A stretch of 45,508 nucleotides of DNA from a virus: positions 1 to 45,508 of the IMG/VR virus record IMGVR_UViG_3300031565_000079. One strand, 5' to 3'. Position 1 is the stretch's first letter. Every line of letters starts with the position of its first letter. The notes below the pieces were generated by a model. It was not told where the DNA came from. It ran no database searches and saw only the letters and a list, made by a program, of their open reading frames with translations. Positions 768 through 36,705 of this stretch are shown here, one piece after another. The translations under genes were made by a program, and so were the position numbers.

Positions 768-1026
768 CGCTTTTCACCTCCTCCTCTTTCCTCCATCGTT
801 CATTTCTTTCAAGACAATCCCAGACAAAATAAACCCAATTACCTTGGTATTTCTCTTCGATGGTTTTCTCAAAATCAGGTTTCTTTTTCAGCCACTCTCT
901 CAAACTTACTAGTGTAGAATTAACCAAGTCCTCTCCGAATCTTCTATTCCAAGCTGCTCGTATGTCGTCTTCGATGTACCAAGCCCAGATCTCGAAATCA
1001 AATTCGACTTCGTTGTATTCATTCAA
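757..1026 (-). CDS. Hypothetical protein (89 aa, Trp/acidic-rich)
   Basis: Track ORF with a TTG start preceded by gggggaa. It overlaps the next gene by 11 nt and sits in the co-directional gene chain. Confidence 0.55.
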   Translation of the reverse strand: MNEYNEVEFDFEIWAWYIEDDIRAAWNRRFGEDLVNSTLVSLREWLKKKPDFEKTIEEKYQGNWVYFVWDCLERNERWRKEEEVKSDGS

Positions 1027-1053
1027 ACTTCATTCCCCCATAAATCCCAATCT

Positions 1054-2295
1054 TTATTCCATTATCCATGATGGCTTCCAATCCTTTAATAAATCTTTTA
1101 ACCTAATTAGTTCTTTTTCTGTCCATTTTTCAAAGTTTGCATTATATCCCAATTTTTCTTTAAACTTTGCATTATCCTCCAAACATAATCCCTTCCTTAA
1201 TTCCTGAATTTTCTCGATTAATACATCTTTAGTTAGGGAAAAATCGTCATTTTTATCGACTTTCTCTAATGGTTCTCTTGGAGTAACGAATGGACTTGTT
1301 TCTTTTTCTTTTGCTTCTAATTCTCTCTTATCTCGTTCTCCTAATCCTTGATCTTTGCCATACCAATATTCCCAGTATCTAATACCTTGAGCTTTAGTTA
1401 ATTTATCTGCCTTACCTATTTTTTTAACTTCTTCTTTGGTGATATATTGAGAATCAACTATACCCCCCATTTTTTTACCTTCTTCGTTGATGTAGCCATA
1501 AATTTGTTTCTTCTGTAATATGGTAGCCATCTTATCGTTGACTGGTTCTGCCAAATGAGGATTTTTTACTAAATCTTCTCCTGGCATAGTATCTTTGACA
1601 ATTTCTTTAGCCTTGGCGATCCGTTCTTCTTTAGGTTCTAATCTTTCTTTATATTCTTTTGGTATATAAGGATTCTCTTTTACTTCTGTTGCTGTTCCAC
1701 CGAACTCTTTGGTTATGGCTTCACTTGTTATCTTGCAATTATAGATGTAACCCACTATCCTATCGGCAAACTTATAGTATTCTTTTTCAAAATTTTCATC
1801 GTTGGGAAAAATATCTTTACCTACCATTTCAGTAACTGCCTTAATAGCACACTCTCTTACGATACATTTATTATTTTCAATTTCTCGAAAGGTCTTATCG
1901 TGCCAGTAATCATCTTTGGTATATTCCTTCGGGTTTCCTTCGGGTTTTTGAGTGGTTTCTTGGGTAGATTGCATAGGTTTCTCTTGTGAAACATCTTCAT
2001 CCTTTTGAATTTCGTCTATGACTTTTCCATTGACGGATTTATCAGGTTGATTTTTCTTATTTGTAAATTCTTTTACTTTCCCGCTTACTTTAATACAAGC
2101 TCCTTTTATAATTTTATCCTCTTCGCTATCAAGATAAATCCAACAACCTTGCTCACCTGTAGAATCTGCAATTACTACCCATTGAGAAACACCATACTGA
2201 CCAGTCATTGGAGCTTTTGCAAACTTAACATTGCCTTCAATCTCTACCACATCACCTTCTTTCGTTCTTGACATTTCATTTAATTTAATTTCCAT
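1054..2295 (-). CDS. Hypothetical protein with a possible N-terminal OB-fold (possible ssDNA-binding or recombination protein)
   Basis: Track ORF of 413 aa with RBS gagggaggtgaaataaATG. The N-terminal ~95 aa (GDVVEIEGNV...SQWVVIADSTGEQGCWIYLD...IKVSGKVKEF) look like an OB barrel. It lies near a PD-(D/E)XK nuclease gene. The function is an inference. Confidence 0.75.
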   Translation of the reverse strand: MEIKLNEMSRTKEGDVVEIEGNVKFAKAPMTGQYGVSQWVVIADSTGEQGCWIYLDSEEDKIIKGACIKVSGKVKEFTNKKNQPDKSVNGKVIDEIQKDEDVSQEKPMQSTQETTQKPEGNPKEYTKDDYWHDKTFREIENNKCIVRECAIKAVTEMVGKDIFPNDENFEKEYYKFADRIVGYIYNCKITSEAITKEFGGTATEVKENPYIPKEYKERLEPKEERIAKAKEIVKDTMPGEDLVKNPHLAEPVNDKMATILQKKQIYGYINEEGKKMGGIVDSQYITKEEVKKIGKADKLTKAQGIRYWEYWYGKDQGLGERDKRELEAKEKETSPFVTPREPLEKVDKNDDFSLTKDVLIEKIQELRKGLCLEDNAKFKEKLGYNANFEKWTEKELIRLKDLLKDWKPSWIME

Positions 2296-2442
2296 TTATT
2301 TCACCTCCCTCTCTAATAAAATTTTATAATCTCTAACTATTTTCCTTAACCGTTCATTCTCATCCATTAATTCATCTCTCACTTCTTTTAAAGTTGTATT
2401 CTCATCTTCTAAATCTTCTATTTTATCTTCCAACTGTCCCAT
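2296..2442 (-). CDS. Small coiled-coil protein (48 aa)
   Basis: Hand translation gives MGQLEDKIEDLEDENTTLKEVRDELMDENERLRKIVRDYKILLEREVK. The stop codon directly abuts the ATG of the next gene. The ORF is below the track size cut-off. Confidence 0.45.
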   Translation of the reverse strand: MGQLEDKIEDLEDENTTLKEVRDELMDENERLRKIVRDYKILLEREVK

Positions 2443-2445
2443 AAT

Positions 2446-2856
2446 CTATTCCTCCTCGAATATAATTATTTTGCCTTTTAGGATGTGGATGTCGTACTTT
2501 TCTATAAATTCTTTTAAATCTTTAAAAGAGCCATAGGTATGGTTTTTATTTGTTTGTTTATCAACTCTTACCAAAGTATATATAGCTTCATCGTCTTTCC
2601 AGTCTTTTATTAACATCCCTACCCAACCATTATCGTTCCACCTGCAGAAGCACGGAAACTTTATCTTATCGAGGTTCTCGTCATTAACCCAGTTGCCCTT
2701 ATCTATTGTCCCTTTGTAATATATTCTATTTTCTTTAAGATATAGAGGTTGTCTTTTGCCCCTAATACAAATCTCCCCTATATGTTCCTCTTTTTTCTTC
2801 TCCTTCTTCGCTTTCACTACTTCTACTTCCAAATATGGTCTATCCTGTAAATTCAC
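2446..2856 (-). CDS. Hypothetical protein (136 aa)
   Basis: Track ORF with a GTG start after aaggaggtgaagaa and a GTGA overlap with the upstream gene. Confidence 0.65.
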   Translation of the reverse strand: MNLQDRPYLEVEVVKAKKEKKKEEHIGEICIRGKRQPLYLKENRIYYKGTIDKGNWVNDENLDKIKFPCFCRWNDNGWVGMLIKDWKDDEAIYTLVRVDKQTNKNHTYGSFKDLKEFIEKYDIHILKGKIIIFEEE

Positions 2857-4435: not shown

Positions 4436-4837
4436 TCACACCTTAACGTATCTTTTCTCCCTGCAAATAATCCTCTTACATGATTCACAATATTTTTGTC
4501 TGGGATTACCTACGAAAGACTTACCACATCTTTGACAATCTAACTTAATTTTGCCGATAATAGGGCTTTCACTTTCAATAATGTTTTCCTTATCTTCTTG
4601 TGATAATTCATATCCTATTTTTTTCGCCTTTATATCGGCTTTATAGAGTTCTTCTAATTGAGGATTCATTGGTAATACTGCTCTCTCAAAATATCCACAT
4701 CTTTTATCCTTGGATAAAGAACATTGACAATCTTCTTCATACTCTCTGTCACAATAATCCTTAATATCATTGAGCAAAGCACTATAACAAGCACATTCAT
4801 TAACTATTAAACGTTTAATTTGTAGTTCAATCTTCAT
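4436..4837 (-). CDS. Cysteine-rich protein with a C-terminal zinc ribbon
   Basis: Track ORF of 133 aa with RBS taagggggattaaaATG. Cysteine pairs include CACY, CDREYEEDCQC and CQRCGK...CESCKRIIC. Confidence 0.65.
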   Translation of the reverse strand: MKIELQIKRLIVNECACYSALLNDIKDYCDREYEEDCQCSLSKDKRCGYFERAVLPMNPQLEELYKADIKAKKIGYELSQEDKENIIESESPIIGKIKLDCQRCGKSFVGNPRQKYCESCKRIICREKRYVKV

Positions 4838-4848
4838 TTTAATCCCCC

Positions 4849-5997
4849 TTATTCAACTTTGTTTAATATGTCTTGTTGGTCTTTATAAAGCGGTCGTTCA
4901 AATATATAACTAAATCCTTTCCAGTTGAGCCACTCTGCCACTCTCGTTCCCTCATGAGCCAAATGTCCGCCTTCAATAAAACTATACCCTGTGCCAGTTT
5001 GAGTAATTAGTCCTCCGTGGAATAGTGCAATCAAGAAACCATTCTGGTCAAAAATACCTGAACCTGAACTACCTGGTGCTGATGGGATGTCAATTTTTAC
5101 TTGATCCATCCAGCCAAGACCATCCGTACCAATGCCTAAATCTAAATGGGTCTGATTGATATGTCCCTGGTCTGTACTAAATGGTAATGCTAATGGGGCA
5201 TGTCTGATCCAGACCTTCTCACCTACTTCACATTCAGTCTGTCGGAATGTAGCATAAGGTTGAAATGCCACGTTTTTGATTTGTAAAATACCTACATCAA
5301 GTCCTTTATCGTATCCCACACAAACTGCTTCAATGTCATAATTTTGGTCTGCACTAATTTTGATACTTGCCTTATTCACGGTAGCTATCCAGAAAGTAGG
5401 TTCTCCCATTTTATCTACAAGATAAGAATATTTTTGAGATATTGGTCTTGCACCTGCTTTAATCTCTGCTTTAGGTGGGTCAATACTCGTTTTGATATCT
5501 TTCTCCTCATAAACGTTAATAGGTTCTGTTTTGCTTCCCAGATTTAATTTATCTACGAGAGGTTGTACAACATGATAGTTTGTCATTACTAAAGTTTCTG
5601 CGTAGATAACTTTATCCTGGGATTGTAATGCTTCTGGTAATATACTGGAATAGATTATAGTTCCCGTTCCATAAATAGCAGTCTCCACAATTTTATCTTT
5701 TTCATCTTTGTCGTCCCCAATCCATTCACCATACTTCACTAAATAACCTTGTTTATACCAGACTTTTTCATCCTCATTTAATTTCTTGAACTCCTCATCG
5801 GTTAACTTCACTCCTTCTTCAAATTTGTAAAAGGATAGTTGTCTATAAACTTGCTGTACGGGTATTCTGACCTGAACTCCCACCCTTTCAACGAAATCAA
5901 TCACATCTTTTTCATTAATCGGTGGAGAAGCCCATTCTGCTAAAACAGGTAATGCTAAAAAGGCTACAATAAATATCGCTAGTAAAATCTTCTTCAT
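4849..5997 (-). CDS. Secreted trypsin-like (S1/Trypsin_2-type) serine protease
   Basis: Track ORF of 382 aa with signal peptide MKKILLAIFIVAFLALPVLAEW. The candidate triad is TNYHVV (His), GLDVGILQI (Asp) and PGSSGSGIF (Ser). Confidence 0.6.
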   Translation of the reverse strand: MKKILLAIFIVAFLALPVLAEWASPPINEKDVIDFVERVGVQVRIPVQQVYRQLSFYKFEEGVKLTDEEFKKLNEDEKVWYKQGYLVKYGEWIGDDKDEKDKIVETAIYGTGTIIYSSILPEALQSQDKVIYAETLVMTNYHVVQPLVDKLNLGSKTEPINVYEEKDIKTSIDPPKAEIKAGARPISQKYSYLVDKMGEPTFWIATVNKASIKISADQNYDIEAVCVGYDKGLDVGILQIKNVAFQPYATFRQTECEVGEKVWIRHAPLALPFSTDQGHINQTHLDLGIGTDGLGWMDQVKIDIPSAPGSSGSGIFDQNGFLIALFHGGLITQTGTGYSFIEGGHLAHEGTRVAEWLNWKGFSYIFERPLYKDQQDILNKVE

Positions 5998-6003
5998 TTT
6001 TTT

Positions 6004-6099
6004 TCACCTCCTCCTTGTAATATATTTTAGAAAGAAAGCTAACCCAATTACAAAAACTATAATAATGGGAAACTTAATTAAAAAAGCGATGTTATTCAT
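6004..6099 (-). CDS. Possible 31-aa hydrophobic peptide
   Basis: Hand translation gives MNNIAFLIKFPIIIVFVIGLAFFLKYITRRR. It has an ATGA overlap with the upstream gene. It is very short, so the call is tentative. Confidence 0.3.
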   Translation of the reverse strand: MNNIAFLIKFPIIIVFVIGLAFFLKYITRRR

Positions 6100-6434
6100 T
6101 GGTTCTCCTTAAATAAAACAACACATATCAAGGAATATATTGCTAAATCTTTTAAGGTATCTTCTATGCTCTCATTTTTTACTTTGTATTCTTCTTTTTT
6201 AGCGAAGCTACATAGCCTTGAAAATTTATCACTCATTCTGACAAGACAACCTTTCCAGGCAGGTATTCCCATCATTTCGCTTAATTTCAAATTCCTGAAT
6301 GGATCACCTTCTCCTGAATAGTCATGATTTTTATTGGAATGTATTTCTTTCAACTCGTCTAATAATTTATAAAAGTCAGGATGTCCGTAATATTTTTTGT
6401 CTACCTTTAATCCTCTATATTCTTTCTCTGTCAT
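6096..6434 (-). CDS. All-alpha MazG-like/DUF1599-like protein (possible nucleotide pyrophosphohydrolase)
   Basis: Track ORF of 112 aa. The pattern KNHDYSGEGDPFRN...VRMSDKFSRL...ESIEDTLKDLAIYS matches my recollection of the DUF1599/MazG helical family. It needs an HMM check. Confidence 0.45.
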   Translation of the reverse strand: MTEKEYRGLKVDKKYYGHPDFYKLLDELKEIHSNKNHDYSGEGDPFRNLKLSEMMGIPAWKGCLVRMSDKFSRLCSFAKKEEYKVKNESIEDTLKDLAIYSLICVVLFKENQ

Positions 6435-6817
6435 ACTTGTCTCCTTTGAAAATAATCATCTTGCATTACTATGTCGTAAGCCTTTAACCAACCAGGAAAT
6501 CCACCTAAATTGAGATCATCGATATAATAATCACCATACACTTTCCTGGTATTCCACCATTGTATTTCCTCTACATTTTCATTGATTTGTTCAAAATACT
6601 GCAATATATCATGTTTTTTTAAAACTGATTTCACAAAATCCAAACTATCTTCGTTTCGTGTAGTCCAGACTATTAATCGGCAACCATTGTAAAATAAATT
6701 TTCTATAATCTTCTTACAATCAGGCATTAGTTGTGTGCCTTTATCATCGTATCTTTTAGCCTTTCTTATTGTTCCATCGAAATCTATAGCTAAAATCGGT
6801 CTATCTAAATATGCCAT
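6431..6817 (-). CDS. HAD-superfamily phosphatase (nucleotidase-like)
   Basis: Track ORF of 128 aa with DxDxT motif AIDFDGTI, motif II VWTTR and the C-terminal acidic motif GDYYIDD. Confidence 0.65.
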   Translation of the reverse strand: MAYLDRPILAIDFDGTIRKAKRYDDKGTQLMPDCKKIIENLFYNGCRLIVWTTRNEDSLDFVKSVLKKHDILQYFEQINENVEEIQWWNTRKVYGDYYIDDLNLGGFPGWLKAYDIVMQDDYFQRRQV

Positions 6818-8393: not shown

Positions 8394-8966
8394 TTAAAAC
8401 TCGAACGTAACTCCAGCCGTAATACCAGAATAAGTTGGATGTAGAGGGACAAGATTCAGACCCGTAAATAAACCAAATCTATTTCTTTTCAGTAACTCAT
8501 TAATGATGTCCTGTTGCACTTTCATTAAAGATTGCAAATTCTTCACAACTTCCATTAAGGCTTGATTATCAGCCTCTGCTTCGGTATAGAGCTTCTGATA
8601 TCCGATCGCAATTTCGGCGATGTCTTTATAAGCAATTAAGAGTTCAGAATACGTATCGGGGATAATCAGATTCTCTATAGTAGGAATTGTTATCCCCACA
8701 ATACTAACAGAAGCCAGAAGACATACAATAATAAAAACTCTAAAATGTTTTTTTAGCCGATCAGCCAAATCTTTAGCCTCTTCTTTTCTATTCTCAATTC
8801 TCTTCTCTATTTTTTTTACTTTCTCTTCTTCTACTTTGGCTTCTGCTTTTACCTCGTTAATTTTCTCTTTGAGTTTTGAATTATCCCTTCTTGTAAAAAA
8901 TACATACACCAATACAGAAAAAATAATCGCAAAAGCACCTGTTATCCAGTTCCATATATTTTTCAT
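8394..8966 (-). CDS. Membrane protein with an N-terminal TM helix, a Lys/Glu coiled coil and a second TM helix; candidate spanin-like lysis accessory protein
   Basis: Track ORF of 190 aa. TM1 is ITGAFAIIFSVLVYVFF, followed by the coiled coil KLKEKINEVKAEAKVEEEKVKK and TM2 VFIIVCLLASVSIVGITI. The C-terminus ends GVTFEF. It is the last gene of the lysis cluster. Confidence 0.6.
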   Translation of the reverse strand: MKNIWNWITGAFAIIFSVLVYVFFTRRDNSKLKEKINEVKAEAKVEEEKVKKIEKRIENRKEEAKDLADRLKKHFRVFIIVCLLASVSIVGITIPTIENLIIPDTYSELLIAYKDIAEIAIGYQKLYTEAEADNQALMEVVKNLQSLMKVQQDIINELLKRNRFGLFTGLNLVPLHPTYSGITAGVTFEF

Positions 8967-34164: not shown

Positions 34165-34670
34165 AAGAGGGGATAATCACCACCTTTCCTTATTTTTTCT
34201 ATAAATTCTCTTGATATCTTTCCAGCAATATCCTTATGTTCTTTCAACCATAAGTCAATTAAATATTTCTCCAAACAACAATGTTCAGATTGTGTTATAA
34301 GTAACAAATTTTCTATCCTATTATCGGTTTTAATACCATTGATATGGTGAACAACCTCTTTAGAATCTAATTCTCTACCTAAATACTTTTCCATCACTGC
34401 ACGATGTTCCAGTATGGTTTTGTTAGCAGATTTCCAAAGCAACATATACCCATCAATAGTCTTTCTTCTTCCGCCTTTCCAACTGGGATTTTGATTTCCA
34501 GGAAATCTCCATATTAAGTTTATACTACTGTCTCTACGAGGAATATTGAATTTTATCATCCATCTCCATATAGTTTTAAGATGCACTCCACACAATTTAG
34601 CAATTTGGACTAAACCCAATTTTTCGTTCCAATATTTGTTATACAACCATTCCCTGTTTTGATAATTCAT
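34161..34670 (-). CDS. HNH homing-type endonuclease with an N-terminal HTH, immediately upstream of terL
   Basis: Track ORF of 169 aa containing WKGGRRK...[40 protein letters not shown]. It is a paralog of ORF 3912-4280. Confidence 0.8.
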
Positions 34671-34946
34671 TTAACCATCAATCAGTTCTGGAAAATATTC
34701 CCGTTTAATATCTTTTAAACTTACCATTTCCCATTCTATTGCACCATTTATTTCTTCTAATTCTCCCCACATTTCTTCATACTTTTTGCCACGTTCTAAA
34801 AATTCGATAACTTTGCGGTAGAAATCTACTTCGGAATCCATTAGTCTAAAAAGTTGTCTATCTTTTATTAATCTTTTAAATACTTTAATTATTTCTTCTA
34901 TATCCATTTTTTCAACATATTCTTTTGCTTCTTTTGTATCCATCAT
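34671..34946 (-). CDS. Hypothetical protein, member D of the GEKY...W...YFP paralog family
   Basis: Track ORF of 91 aa containing ERGKKYEEMWGELEE...IKREYFPE. Confidence 0.65.
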   Translation of the reverse strand: MMDTKEAKEYVEKMDIEEIIKVFKRLIKDRQLFRLMDSEVDFYRKVIEFLERGKKYEEMWGELEEINGAIEWEMVSLKDIKREYFPELIDG

Positions 34947-35182
34947 TTAACCACCTTTATTAATTTCTTTTCAGGAACTTCAGGAACTATTGATAATCTC
35001 AACTTTATATCGTATGTCTTTGCTTCTAAGTTCAGTGTTTTGTAATCATTATGACTTAACATTCCTAACATGAGTCCTTTTACATATTTGCGGAAAGTAA
35101 CATTCCTGTCTTGATAGGTTTCTTCGGTTACGTCTAATTTGCTGTTACCTTCAAAGACTTTCCCCGTGCCTACTCCGTTCAT
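34943..35182 (-). CDS. Hypothetical protein (79 aa)
   Basis: Track ORF with RBS aaaaggaggtaaatATG and an ATGA overlap downstream. Confidence 0.6.
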   Translation of the reverse strand: MNGVGTGKVFEGNSKLDVTEETYQDRNVTFRKYVKGLMLGMLSHNDYKTLNLEAKTYDIKLRLSIVPEVPEKKLIKVVK

Positions 35183-35964: not shown

Positions 35965-36039
35965 TGGCGAGTCGAGTAGGATTTGAACCCACACTTTTAG
36001 TTCTGGAGACTAATGTGCTACCATTGACACTATCGACTC
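35965..36039 (-). tRNA. trnW: tRNA-Trp (anticodon CCA), with the 3' CCA encoded
   Basis: Hand-folded cloverleaf: acceptor GAGTCGA/TCGACTC, D arm GTGT-CAATGGTA-GCAC, anticodon arm TTAGT-CTCCAGA-ACTAA, T arm GTGGG-TTCAAAT-CCTAC, discriminator G, then CCA. Confidence 0.9.
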
Positions 36040-36192
36040 AGGTGGATTGCTCAAACCCCACGGCAACCCCGTAGTAACCCGTTACCACGTATTATGGCTT
36101 TATTACTACTTCCCGTCTTCGGCGGGCAAAGGTCGACTTTCACCGACAAGAGGTAGTTGCTTGACTAGTATGACTACCACGATGCCCATATT
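36040..36192 (-). ncRNA. Structured, GC-rich 153-nt RNA segment between the two tRNA-type elements (class unknown)
   Basis: Minus-strand helices include GGGCA/TGCCC enclosing GGTAGT/ACTACC and GTCGGT-GAAA-GTCGAC (GNRA loop, two G-U pairs), plus CCCG/CGGG, GTAGTAA/TTACTAC and ACGG/CCGT. No credible ORF is present. Confidence 0.4.
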
Positions 36193-36273
36193 TGGTGGAG
36201 GCGTCGGATATCGAACTCCGAGTGTTAAGCGTACACGAATTCACGGCTTTGCTTAATCGAACCTTACGCCCCC
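36193..36273 (-). ncRNA. 81-nt element resembling the tmRNA tRNA-like domain (acceptor stem with G3:U70, T arm, encoded ACCA) but lacking an anticodon arm and a tag ORF
   Basis: The RNA reads GGGGGCG UAAGGUUCGA UUAAGC-(20 nt)-GCUUAA CAC UCGGA-GUUCGAUA-UCCGA CGCCUCC ACCA. I could not fold a canonical D or anticodon arm by hand. Confidence 0.5.
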
Positions 36274-36512
36274 TAATCTTTTTTAGGGAAGTATTTTTGC
36301 TCATACCTATTTTTGATATAATTTACTACCTTTACCAAATCCCCTTCATTTACATAGAAATCCTTCCACATTGCCTTATACTTTTCGTTTTCTTTGCCTT
36401 CTTCGAGTGATTTAATAATCTCGTTTATTGGGTAAGTCACAAGGGTTCTCTCGCCACCCTCAAGATATCCTTTTACTTGATAAAGATAACTTATTAAATG
36501 TTCAATTATCAT
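36273..36512 (-). CDS. Hypothetical protein, member E of the GEKY...W...KYFP paralog family
   Basis: Track ORF of 79 aa containing EEGKENEKYKAMWKDF...YEQKYFPKKD, with RBS aaggaggaaattgaATG. Confidence 0.65.
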   Translation of the reverse strand: MIIEHLISYLYQVKGYLEGGERTLVTYPINEIIKSLEEGKENEKYKAMWKDFYVNEGDLVKVVNYIKNRYEQKYFPKKD

Positions 36513-36537
36513 TCAATTTCCTCCTTAAATTAAAATA

Positions 36538-36705
36538 TCAATCTACTACTATAGTCTTCCCCTTCGTTCTGACACATACTCGATGGACTTGTCTTTTTCT
36601 GTAACACTTTTTACACATTTCAATTACCTTATCCTCATATATGAAGTAACGAGGGGGAGGATCTATTGGTTTTCCACATTTAGAACATGTTTCGCAGATA
36701 AACAT
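36538..36705 (-). CDS. Zinc-ribbon mini-protein (55 aa)
   Basis: Hand translation gives MFICETCSKCGKPIDPPPRYFIYEDKVIEMCKKCYRKRQVHRVCVRTKGKTIVVD, with RBS taggaggaaataATG. The first codons overlap an imperfect copy of the 15-nt motif. Confidence 0.5.
   Translation of the reverse strand: MFICETCSKCGKPIDPPPRYFIYEDKVIEMCKKCYRKRQVHRVCVRTKGKTIVVD

Follow-up and report, generated by a model that had tools for sequence, protein, structure and literature searches.

A slightly deviant tmRNA consisting of the tRNA-like domain only, encoded in a tRNA cluster of an uncultured phage

The stretch of viral DNA analysed here, referred to as the window, comprises 45,508 nt (positions 1 to 45,508 of the IMG/VR record IMGVR_UViG_3300031565_000079). 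Its positions 36193–36273 encode, on the minus strand, a small RNA that resembles a transfer-messenger RNA (tmRNA) from which everything except the tRNA-like domain (TLD) is missing. All genes in this part of the window are encoded by the minus strand. The first base of the RNA, G1, is at the same time the last base of the UAG stop codon of an upstream open reading frame (ORF) of 79 aa (36273–36512), and a tRNA-Trp gene lies downstream. The parts of the element are listed below in the order of the RNA; R1 denotes a covariance model of the viral RNAs of this type, and L followed by a number denotes related loci.

36193–36273, minus strand: complete gene of the TLD-only mini-tmRNA, 81 nt with its encoded CCA; sequence in RNA sense GGGGGCGUAAGGUUCGAUUAAGCAAAGCCGUGAAUUCGUGUACGCUUAACACUCGGAGUUCGAUAUCCGACGCCUCCACCA
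36267–36273, minus strand: 5' strand of the acceptor stem, GGGGGCG (nt 1–7), pairing with 36197–36203
36257–36266, minus strand: D-loop analogue UAAGGUUCGA (nt 8–17), which in the sister copies is UAAGGUUUCGA, 1 nt longer (from the R1 alignment and comparison with L176, L174 and L165)
36251–36256, minus strand: 5' strand of the P2-like helix, UUAAGC (nt 18–23), pairing with 36225–36230
36231–36250, minus strand: internal loop of 20 nt, AAAGCCGUGAAUUCGUGUAC (nt 24–43), standing where a full tmRNA has pseudoknots and the tag ORF
36225–36230, minus strand: 3' strand of the P2-like helix, GCUUAA (nt 44–49; from the R1 alignment and comparison within the clade)
36222–36224, minus strand: linker CAC (nt 50–52), which with A49 forms ACAC where tmRNA usually has GGAC
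36204–36221, minus strand: T-arm with the stem UCGGA/UCCGA and the 8-nt loop GUUCGAUA (nt 53–70), a 1-nt insertion relative to the canonical arm
36197–36203, minus strand: 3' strand of the acceptor stem, CGCCUCC (nt 71–77), including U70 of G3:U70 (from reading of the sequence and covariation)
36193–36196, minus strand: discriminator A73 and the encoded CCA (from reading of the sequence)

The acceptor stem of this RNA comprises 7 bp (GGGGGCG/CGCCUCC), contains the G3:U70 wobble pair and is followed by ACCA. The set of G3:U70, A73 and CCA is the established identity set of alanyl-tRNA synthetase (AlaRS). A D-loop of the tmRNA type, UAAGGUUCGAU (GG and then UUCGA), starts right after the acceptor strand, while the helix UUAAGC/GCUUAA, backed by covariation, takes the place of P2 between the D-loop analogue and the junction. 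An mRNA-like domain is absent, as just 20 nt separate the two strands of this helix and ARAGORN calls neither a tmRNA nor a tag. An earlier note, prepared from the sequence alone, had pointed to the 7-bp acceptor stem with G3:U70, the discriminator A and the encoded CCA, the GGUUCGA following the 5' strand, the 6-bp helix closed by a 20-nt loop, and a T-arm-like hairpin with a 5-bp stem and an 8-nt loop; all of these are present in the reverse complement of 36193–36273. It had also failed to fold a D arm or an anticodon arm, and ARAGORN and the Rfam tRNA model find neither of them.

The R1 model was run on the whole window with filters off, and the window copy is not among the sequences from which the model was built. 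It matches positions 36196–36273 end to end with a score of 42.8 bits (E~1e-7), and the second-best site on both strands of the 45.5-kb window (36043–36069) reaches 12 bits. A structural pattern of the type specific for the clade to which the element belongs occurs once in the window, as compared to 0.00 occurrences expected from 100 shuffles. The exact 17-mer of the 5' end of the element has no match in IMG/VR. Thermodynamics by itself does not favour the TLD fold: its energy is -21.6 kcal/mol, as compared to -26.1 kcal/mol of the minimum free energy structure, and the z-score is -1.7. Since folding energy does not single out this fold, the case for it rests on the comparison with related sequences.

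The pattern first used in the search for such sequences (GGGG..GG-N-TTCGA, a short gap, TTCGA-N10-CTCCA) excluded the window copy itself by its demand for GG-N-TTCGA. This mini-TLD pattern is present in at least 120 IMG/VR contigs, versus about 2 expected by chance. The layout of the encoded RNAs, of 59–86 nt, is constant and consists of the acceptor stem, GGNUUCGA(C/U), a 5–7-bp helix with a short loop that often contains the mini-hairpin CCGCAYGCGG, (G)GAC, the canonical T-arm, and CUCCA with or without CCA. The CCA is encoded in 40 of the 120 viral members among the matches listed, and in all members of the window's clade. The seed of R1 was formed by 49 viral members that are in register, i.e., the subset with a 4-nt linker, as MAFFT shifted the acceptor strand in members with a 3-nt linker. 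RNAalifold applied to these 49 members reveals three helices, with compensatory double changes at 15 of 19 pairs, and acceptor pairs 5–7 covary in the family. The P2 helix closes an insert that varies from 20 to ~50 nt, with no anticodon loop of 7 nt. All ten viral members sampled are matched by the Rfam tmRNA model RF00023 with 54–81 bits (gathering score 47), in alignments that span model positions 1–374 with the middle deleted. ARAGORN does not call any family member correctly; L068 and L125 are force-fitted by it as odd tRNAs.

Across 118 family members there is no consistent reading frame or stop codon (in-frame stops occur in 43–61 members, depending on the frame), and the arrangement GCN...stop is found in 43 of the 118, versus 42.1±4.5 in shuffled sequences. 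A hidden micro tag-ORF (GCA-AAG-CCG-UGA in the window, with UAA in relatives, and GCN-GAA-UAA in a group of 106-nt members) was rejected because of the lack of a constant frame and stop and the frequency equal to that in shuffles. A tblastn search of 1.7 Mb of family loci with an approximate E. coli SmpB probe revealed no smpB gene, which is a weak negative. A relaxed general pattern applied to genome contigs yielded mostly chance matches in GC-rich coding DNA (R1 scores only 15 of the 80 loci scanned) and is thus unusable for counting prophage copies. Two loci of the family deserve separate mention. L196, a contig of a Candidatus Eremiobacteraeota metagenome-assembled genome (MAG), contains three mini-tmRNA hits of 39–44 bits within 4 kb: 2432–2499 (minus strand), 2733–2801 (minus strand) and 6364–6436 (plus strand). 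In L069, a Pistol ribozyme (6093–6154, minus strand; Rfam 51.9 bits, gathering 34.5) lies ~100 nt from the mini-tmRNA (5905–5987, minus strand).

A terminase-based search identified two genome-wide relatives of the window phage, L129 (TerL 80%) and L130 (TerL 76%), with a nucleotide identity of 73–77% over 9–12 kb. Both have a mini-TLD at a syntenic site upstream of the terminase gene, and none was found in more distant relatives (TerL 58–61%). A clade-specific pattern retrieved 32 further metagenome contigs. The copies in L176, L174 and L165 have the internal loop AAAGCCGUAAAUUCGUGUAC, as in the window, canonical D and T regions, and compensatory changes in P2, the T-stem and the acceptor stem, whereas in the 106-nt subgroup this loop is swapped for a longer arm, which itself covaries. 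The copy in L183, with an internal loop nearly the same as in the window and in the three former loci, is 94% identical to that of the window and has both of its oddities, GG-UUCGA and UCGGAG-UUCGAUA-UCCGA, which indicates that these are inherited and are not sequencing errors, while the remainder of the 9.3-kb contig of L183 is barely alignable to the window. The P2 helix is maintained by compensatory changes, namely, UUAAGU/ACUUAA in L165, AGGA/UCCU in L129 and AGC/GCU in L130, and likewise in L161 and L172. The junction is ACAC, AUAC or AGAC across the clade, and its A, invariant in the seed alignment, is kept in the window. In an alignment of 25 clade members fitted to R1, and hence somewhat biased toward the R1 structure, 90% of cells pair (41–50% when the partners are slid) and 14 of 19 pairs show double changes; none of 500 shuffles reaches the observed values. 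Most clade members score above the gathering threshold of RF00023 (47.7–60 bits; L176, 49.2 bits). Conservation and compensatory changes in related phages, by which the earlier note proposed to check its reading, are found both in the family and in the clade.

The same model also finds such RNAs in cultured phages. R1 detects the known TLD-only tmRNA of mycobacteriophage DS6A (JN698994, 28478–28557, 58.9 bits), which lies 10 kb from the integrase gene where the record has no annotation, as well as unannotated copies in Streptomyces phages Shaeky (MT701595, 42932–43011, 68.5 bits) and LuckySocke (OR725497, 17977–18055, 62.8 bits), where the element fills a tRNA-sized gap in a tRNA array. The LuckySocke copy, which was found by BLAST and not by the structural pattern, keeps G3:U70 despite a changed pair 4:69. 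In phage GiJojo, the TLD site is covered by a coding sequence (CDS) annotated as a hypothetical protein. Based on the end-to-end match to R1, the detection of the DS6A element by the same model, and the matches of RF00023 to the relatives, the window element is identified as a TLD-only tmRNA, i.e., a further, slightly deviant representative of the DS6A type. The earlier note had described the element as the tRNA-like domain of a tmRNA that stands by itself, has alanine identity and lacks the mRNA-like domain, and this is upheld by the covarying family, RF00023 and DS6A. Of the programs that it named for verification, neither ARAGORN nor Infernal with Rfam models calls a tmRNA at the window copy, and neither of them calls a tRNA there; most relatives are above the gathering score of RF00023.

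Representatives of the TLD-only family are usually located at the head of, or within, phage tRNA clusters. Among 122 unique loci, 34 hold a tRNA gene, and in 29 of these 34 at least one lies within 300 nt; the nearest one is on the same strand in 28 of the 29 and within 9 nt in 18. The clusters headed by the TLD in the window's clade are of the composition His-Met, His-Trp-Met, His-Thr-Trp, Thr or Trp, with spacing of typically 2–5 nt, and in L130 the tRNA-Trp starts 2 nt after the TLD. The corresponding features of the window are as follows.

36040–36192, minus strand: spacer of 153 nt between the element and tRNA-Trp, with putative decayed remnants of a tRNA array
35965–36039, minus strand: tRNA-Trp (CCA), called by ARAGORN and scored 60.9 bits by the Rfam tRNA model; the downstream partner in the small RNA cluster

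The spacer is probably the debris of a decayed tRNA array and not a functional part of the locus. Over its initial ~35 nt, it can be aligned with the 5' portion of the tRNA-His of relatives (AUCGUGGUAGU-CAUACUAGUCAAGC versus AUCGUGGCAGUAGCAUAUAGGUAAUGC in L176), and a block in its distal part is common to L163 and L171 (CGGGAAGUAGUAAU...UUACUACG...GGGGUUUGAGCAAUCCA). No folding signal (z=0.03), no BLAST homologue and no Rfam match were found for the spacer. Positions 36043–36069 (minus strand), which adjoin tRNA-Trp, can form a hairpin GGGUUGC-CGUGGGGUUUGA-GCAAUCC followed by ACC that resembles an acceptor minihelix, its third pair being G·U. The reading of this site as another TLD or as an alanine minihelix was rejected, as it scores 12 bits only and the G·U pair is A-U in L163 and L171. 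In L129, the closest relative, a remnant of tRNA-Trp (8677–8720, plus strand; GAGTCGATAATG...) stands beside a canonical mini-tmRNA, which indicates that either gene of the cluster can decay without the other, depending on the phage.

Downstream of tRNA-Trp in the window there are a promoter-like site, small ORFs, and genes of an HNH endonuclease and the large terminase subunit. In comparison with L130, the window has two insertions that flank the RNA cluster. One of them (34167–35027, minus strand) separates the terminase gene from the small ORFs and comprises the HNH endonuclease gene and an ORF of 91 aa. The other (36273–36540, minus strand), with the 79-aa ORF, separates the mini-tmRNA from a zinc-ribbon-like ORF. 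Both insertion junctions end in a GATT(A)G-like sequence. A mechanically predicted ORF of 54 aa (36140–36304, minus strand) covers the whole mini-tmRNA and could be labelled by gene callers as a hypothetical protein; it is almost certainly spurious, because the covariation in this region is of the RNA type. Pfam scans of the neighbouring small ORFs were uninformative. Just 5' of G1, many members of the clade (L163, L181, L162, L173) have a conserved A/T-rich sequence, ...TAATAT or ...AATAAT, giving ATG-GGG-GCG-TAA, while the window and L130 have GATTAG; a leader preference of RNase P, a promoter element or coincidence are candidate explanations.

Two observations concern the regions downstream of the element in relatives. 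In L183, ~150 nt downstream of the mini-tmRNA (4621–4657, minus strand), there is a match of 35.9 bits (gathering 37; E~7e-5 on the local slice) to the abiF RNA RF03085, a motif associated with AbiF abortive-infection genes (Rfam). This motif was found neither in the window nor in 11 other relatives. A conserved non-coding segment of ~150 nt, from (A)UGGAAGUAG to GCUUCCAUUUAUCAAC, follows the TLD or tRNA-His in L183 (~4480–4800, minus strand) and L176 (~880–1105, minus strand), with a terminator-like hairpin GCCCGUUGA...GACGGGC next to it; the abiF-like piece of L183 is all that Rfam recognizes in this segment.

Concerning the function of the window element, we lean slightly toward the view that it is a phage-encoded, CDS-less tmRNA of the DS6A type, consisting of the TLD only, which acts by competing with the tmRNA of the host. 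Judging by its position in a tRNA cluster, the RNA would be transcribed from the minus strand together with the upstream small genes and the downstream tRNA-Trp, and would mature like a tRNA, with RNase P cleavage at G1 and trimming of the 3' end to the encoded CCA. By the identity rule mentioned above, the host AlaRS would be expected to charge it via G3:U70 and A73. Homology to tmRNA and the behaviour of engineered TLDs suggest that its elbow and D-loop analogue may bind the host SmpB, and that the charged form may bind EF-Tu. As the resume codon, the tag ORF and the pseudoknots are missing, such a complex could not complete trans-translation and would compete for SmpB and stalled ribosomes. 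The predicted net effect, of conjectural benefit to the phage, is decreased ssrA tagging and proteolysis of unfinished proteins, including those of the phage, during infection. Charging, SmpB binding and decoy action of the window RNA are proposed here by analogy, and the mechanism would match the published inhibition by a DS6A-like RNA as well as the in vitro work with engineered TLDs (PMC4131195, PMC11915505, PMC3929946, PMC3895274).

Several observations weigh against this view. Many of them also speak for the rival view that the tRNA cluster of the window is decaying and that the TLD allele carried along in it, with little or no activity, is being eroded and on its way to becoming a pseudogene. 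The canonical T-arm, with a 5-bp stem and a 7-nt loop (UUCGANN, G53-C61), is present in 118 of the 123 unique family members but not in the window, where the arm can be drawn either with an 8-nt loop closed by A-U or with G·U and a bulged A; the shifted arm with an 8-nt loop occurs only in the window and L183 (2 of 123), and three other alleles of the clade have defective T-stems. The D-loop analogue, 1 nt shorter than that of the sisters, is at the short end of the family range, as the distance between the acceptor strand and UUCGA is 7 nt in 67 members, 6 nt in 48, 5 nt in five, including the window, and 4 nt in three. The usual GGAC beside the T-arm is replaced by ACAC, and the whole clade is alike in this respect. 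The R1 score drops from 59.9–67.1 bits in L176, L174 and L165 to 42.8 bits in the window and 35.9 bits in L183, and the latter has gained two extra C·A mismatches by G-to-A changes that break pairs. Neither the window copy nor that of L183, which has the same indels, is reported by RF00023 at its gathering score of 47 bits. At the gathering thresholds of Rfam, the neighbouring tRNA is the only report, with RF00023 and RF00005 silent at the site; no RF00023, tRNA or mitochondrial tmRNA (mt-tmRNA) match appears at E<=10 in a 501-nt slice, and ARAGORN, run on the window, calls only the tRNA-Trp. The tRNA-His next to the element is only a remnant in the window, and tRNA-Trp is lost in L129. Together, these features hint at the erosion of the RNA cluster of the window. 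A further point against the preferred view is that the clade pattern has no match in 185,579 species genomes. The tRNA elbow is built by two regions, the T-arm and the D-loop analogue. With two indels in these regions, full activity of the window copy is not to be assumed, and it may be below that of the canonical members. On the other hand, all three helices of the window copy pair fully, its G3:U70, A73 and CCA are intact, and the change in the T-stem can be read as a compensatory swap of G-C to A-U. Short D-loops have arisen independently beside otherwise canonical arms in L122 and L124–L128. Since its split from L183, the window copy has acquired one change only, located in the loop, and the variant is 94% identical in two phages that share almost nothing else, although this identity could result from recent exchange and not from selection. 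Taken together, we judge the erosion of the window copy to be rather unlikely.

The remaining explanations assign another role or another origin to the RNA. A minimal but productive rescue, in which the alanyl-TLD with SmpB takes over the nascent chain, adds one or several alanines and allows its release with no ssrA tag, so that phage proteins from damaged mRNAs are salvaged and ribosomes are freed, would be in line with the conservation of alanine identity and CCA in the family, with the acceptance of the peptide and template-free polyalanine synthesis by TLD and SmpB in vitro (PMC3929946, PMC3895274), and with the retention of CDS-less tmRNAs and SmpB in organelles, suggesting that a TLD alone can be useful (PMC11915505). 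It leaves the release step unexplained, as the RNA offers release factors neither a stop codon nor a message, and in the sole in vivo test, tmRNA was inhibited by the RNA whether or not it was chargeable (PMC4131195); we find this role quite improbable. When defence nucleases cut the tRNAs of a host, tRNAs encoded by phages are known to stand in for them. As the element is placed with phage tRNAs, it might belong to a counter-defence RNA island and be a decoy for another target, e.g., a nuclease or a sensor of tRNA or tmRNA shapes, and the abiF-RNA-like motif of L183, the Pistol ribozyme of L069, and the SmpB-like domains predicted to bind tmRNA-like RNA in CoCoNuT defence systems (PMC11090510) could be seen in this light. 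These points are circumstantial, the abiF-like motif being present in one relative only and not in the window, and AlaRS, EF-Tu and SmpB need exactly the features that are conserved, although a generic decoy could do without them; a decoy of this kind is therefore very unlikely. Phages often integrate into ssrA, and the earlier note had considered a remnant of an ssrA-derived attachment site. Of ssrA, however, an attachment core contains just the 3' part, but the window element has the two halves side by side, and they covary; no integrase was found by Pfam and PHROGs scans of 30 window ORFs, including all those of at least 300 aa, as the earlier note had also remarked, and the DS6A element lies far from the integrase gene. 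The related proposal that the element is the acceptor piece of a permuted two-piece tmRNA with a coding piece downstream derives from a weak partial match of tmRNA_permuted (15.5 bits, E=0.47, in the permissive scan of 501 nt), which joins the T-arm and CCA to the downstream GGGGUUG...GGGGUUUGA, and from the position of the second-best R1 hit. It was rejected, as the scores of RF04321 and RF01849 (15.5 and 6.9 bits) are far lower than their gathering scores of 47 and 50, and the 5' strand is contiguous upstream; the downstream putative second 5' end reaches tRNA-Trp within 30 nt, leaving no room for a coding piece, and its G·U pair is A-U in L163, thus not being a conserved alanine determinant. 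Together, the attachment-site and permuted origins are extremely improbable. The same holds even more strongly for an ordinary or unusual tRNA, or a tRNA pseudogene, with an overlooked anticodon. Its size, its position in a tRNA cluster and the force-fitting of L068 and L125 by ARAGORN could point to it, but neither ARAGORN nor the Rfam tRNA model under the permissive conditions recognizes a tRNA at the site, the RF00005 cloverleaf not being found there while the same tools call the neighbouring tRNA-Trp, and the interior of the element is one helix with a variable insert. The confident fold as an ordinary tRNA that, according to the earlier note, would speak against its reading did not appear.

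The preferred reading, i.e., a TLD-only tmRNA that competes with the host tmRNA, relates the window element to a broader group of RNAs. The TLD-only class was known before, from reports of 2009, 2014 and 2025, and the idea of a decoy has already been published along with an inhibition experiment (PMC4131195, PMC11915505). The literature searched treats the phage TLD-only form as a single case, DS6A, in addition to a few organellar ones, and a full-text search, of incomplete coverage and thus no proof of absence, did not turn up any account of these RNAs as a broad family in phages. The distribution described above, which includes at least 120 IMG/VR contigs, 32 metagenome contigs of the window's clade, cultured Streptomyces phages, DS6A, and MAG contigs of several phyla, indicates that RNAs of the TLD-only kind are common in cultured and uncultured phages and are systematically unannotated. 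It is tempting to propose, though only tentatively, that they represent a widespread, largely unannotated class of phage small RNAs that reprogram host ribosome rescue during infection. If so, this class would block ssrA tagging or replace it with a tag-less addition of alanine or polyalanine, possibly to counter abortive-infection systems whose RNA cleavage fills the cell with non-stop mRNAs, and the window's clade would exemplify alleles swapped among mosaic phages at the head of tRNA clusters. Trans-translation is the main bacterial pathway of ribosome rescue and quality control and has been proposed as a target for antibiotics. A compact RNA of natural origin, used by phages to interfere with it or to short-circuit it, would be a new tool of host take-over and a ready scaffold for inhibitors. 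The window copy itself, as one somewhat deviant allele in an uncultured phage, is of modest value. As the carriers include cultivable phages of Streptomyces and Mycobacterium, the question of why phages carry tmRNA-like genes is directly testable.

The similarity of the window RNA to tRNA-Ala and the alanine minihelix concerns G3:U70, A73 and CCA. The window RNA differs from them by the lack of an anticodon arm and a D stem, and by the tmRNA type of its D-loop analogue and junction. In the case of bacterial one-piece tmRNA (SsrA, RF00023), the 5' and 3' ends that form the TLD are homologous to the window RNA, and alanine identity and the CCA end are common to both, while the window RNA lacks ~280 nt with the pseudoknots PK1–PK4, the resume codon and the tag ORF. 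Permuted two-piece tmRNA (RF04321, RF01849), described in phage Melnitz (PMC9004378), is also a phage-encoded relative of tmRNA and weakly matches the T-arm and CCA of the window element, the gene order of which is not permuted and which has no coding piece.

CDS-less tmRNAs are present as well in mitochondria of jakobids and oomycetes and in two plastids, where they are kept together with SmpB (PMC11915505). The mt-tmRNA of jakobids and oomycetes and the ~65-bp plastid forms of Mallomonadaceae are likewise reduced to the TLD, lack a tag frame and pose the same functional puzzle (PMC11915505; see also PMC3590771). They are vertically inherited replacements of the only tmRNA of the cell, whereas the phage RNA is an extra copy beside the full tmRNA of the cell. 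A design the same as that of the natural phage RNA, with ~25 nt of the 5' end, ~34 nt of the 3' end and a short loop, characterizes engineered TLDs. Fragments of this kind were reportedly used in the in vitro work of Shimizu and Ueda in 2006. An engineered TLD of 25 nt from the 5' end and 34 nt from the 3' end, joined via a tetraloop, binds SmpB (T. thermophilus, PDB 2CZJ). Engineered TLDs are delivered by EF-Tu, and with SmpB they participate in peptidyl transfer and support polyalanine synthesis in vitro with no mRNA (PMC3929946, PMC3895274). They are artificial cuts from bacterial tmRNA, while the window RNA has a longer, conserved internal loop and noncanonical details of the D and T regions.

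The most direct counterpart of the window element is the TLD-only form of DS6A (tmRNA Website tmID 11587; Mao et al. 2009, as described in PMC4131195 and PMC11915505), listed by Hudson, Lau and Williams in 2014 as "Mycobacterium phage DS6A (TLD only)" (PMC4131195). In the sole in vivo test reported, a DS6A-like RNA, chargeable or not, inhibited tmRNA (PMC4131195), and the 2025 tmRNA database paper states that the DS6A form inhibits endogenous tmRNA in E. coli (PMC11915505). The DS6A element has a canonical 7-nt T-loop, a G/CAC junction and the common mini-hairpin AAAACCGCACGCGGUA in its loop, while in the window element the T-loop is of 8 nt, the D-loop analogue is shorter, the junction is ACAC and the internal loop is a different conserved one, AAAGCCGUGAAUUCGUGUAC. 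Their carriers differ as well, DS6A being a GC-rich temperate actinophage with an integrase and no tRNA gene adjacent to the element, and the window representing an AT-rich phage of ~45 kb with the element in a tRNA cluster. Nevertheless, both elements are phage-borne, unannotated in their records and detected by one covariance model, and they share their size and architecture: an acceptor stem with G3:U70, a GG-N-UCGAC D-loop analogue, a short P2 with a small loop, and a T-arm, with no tag ORF.

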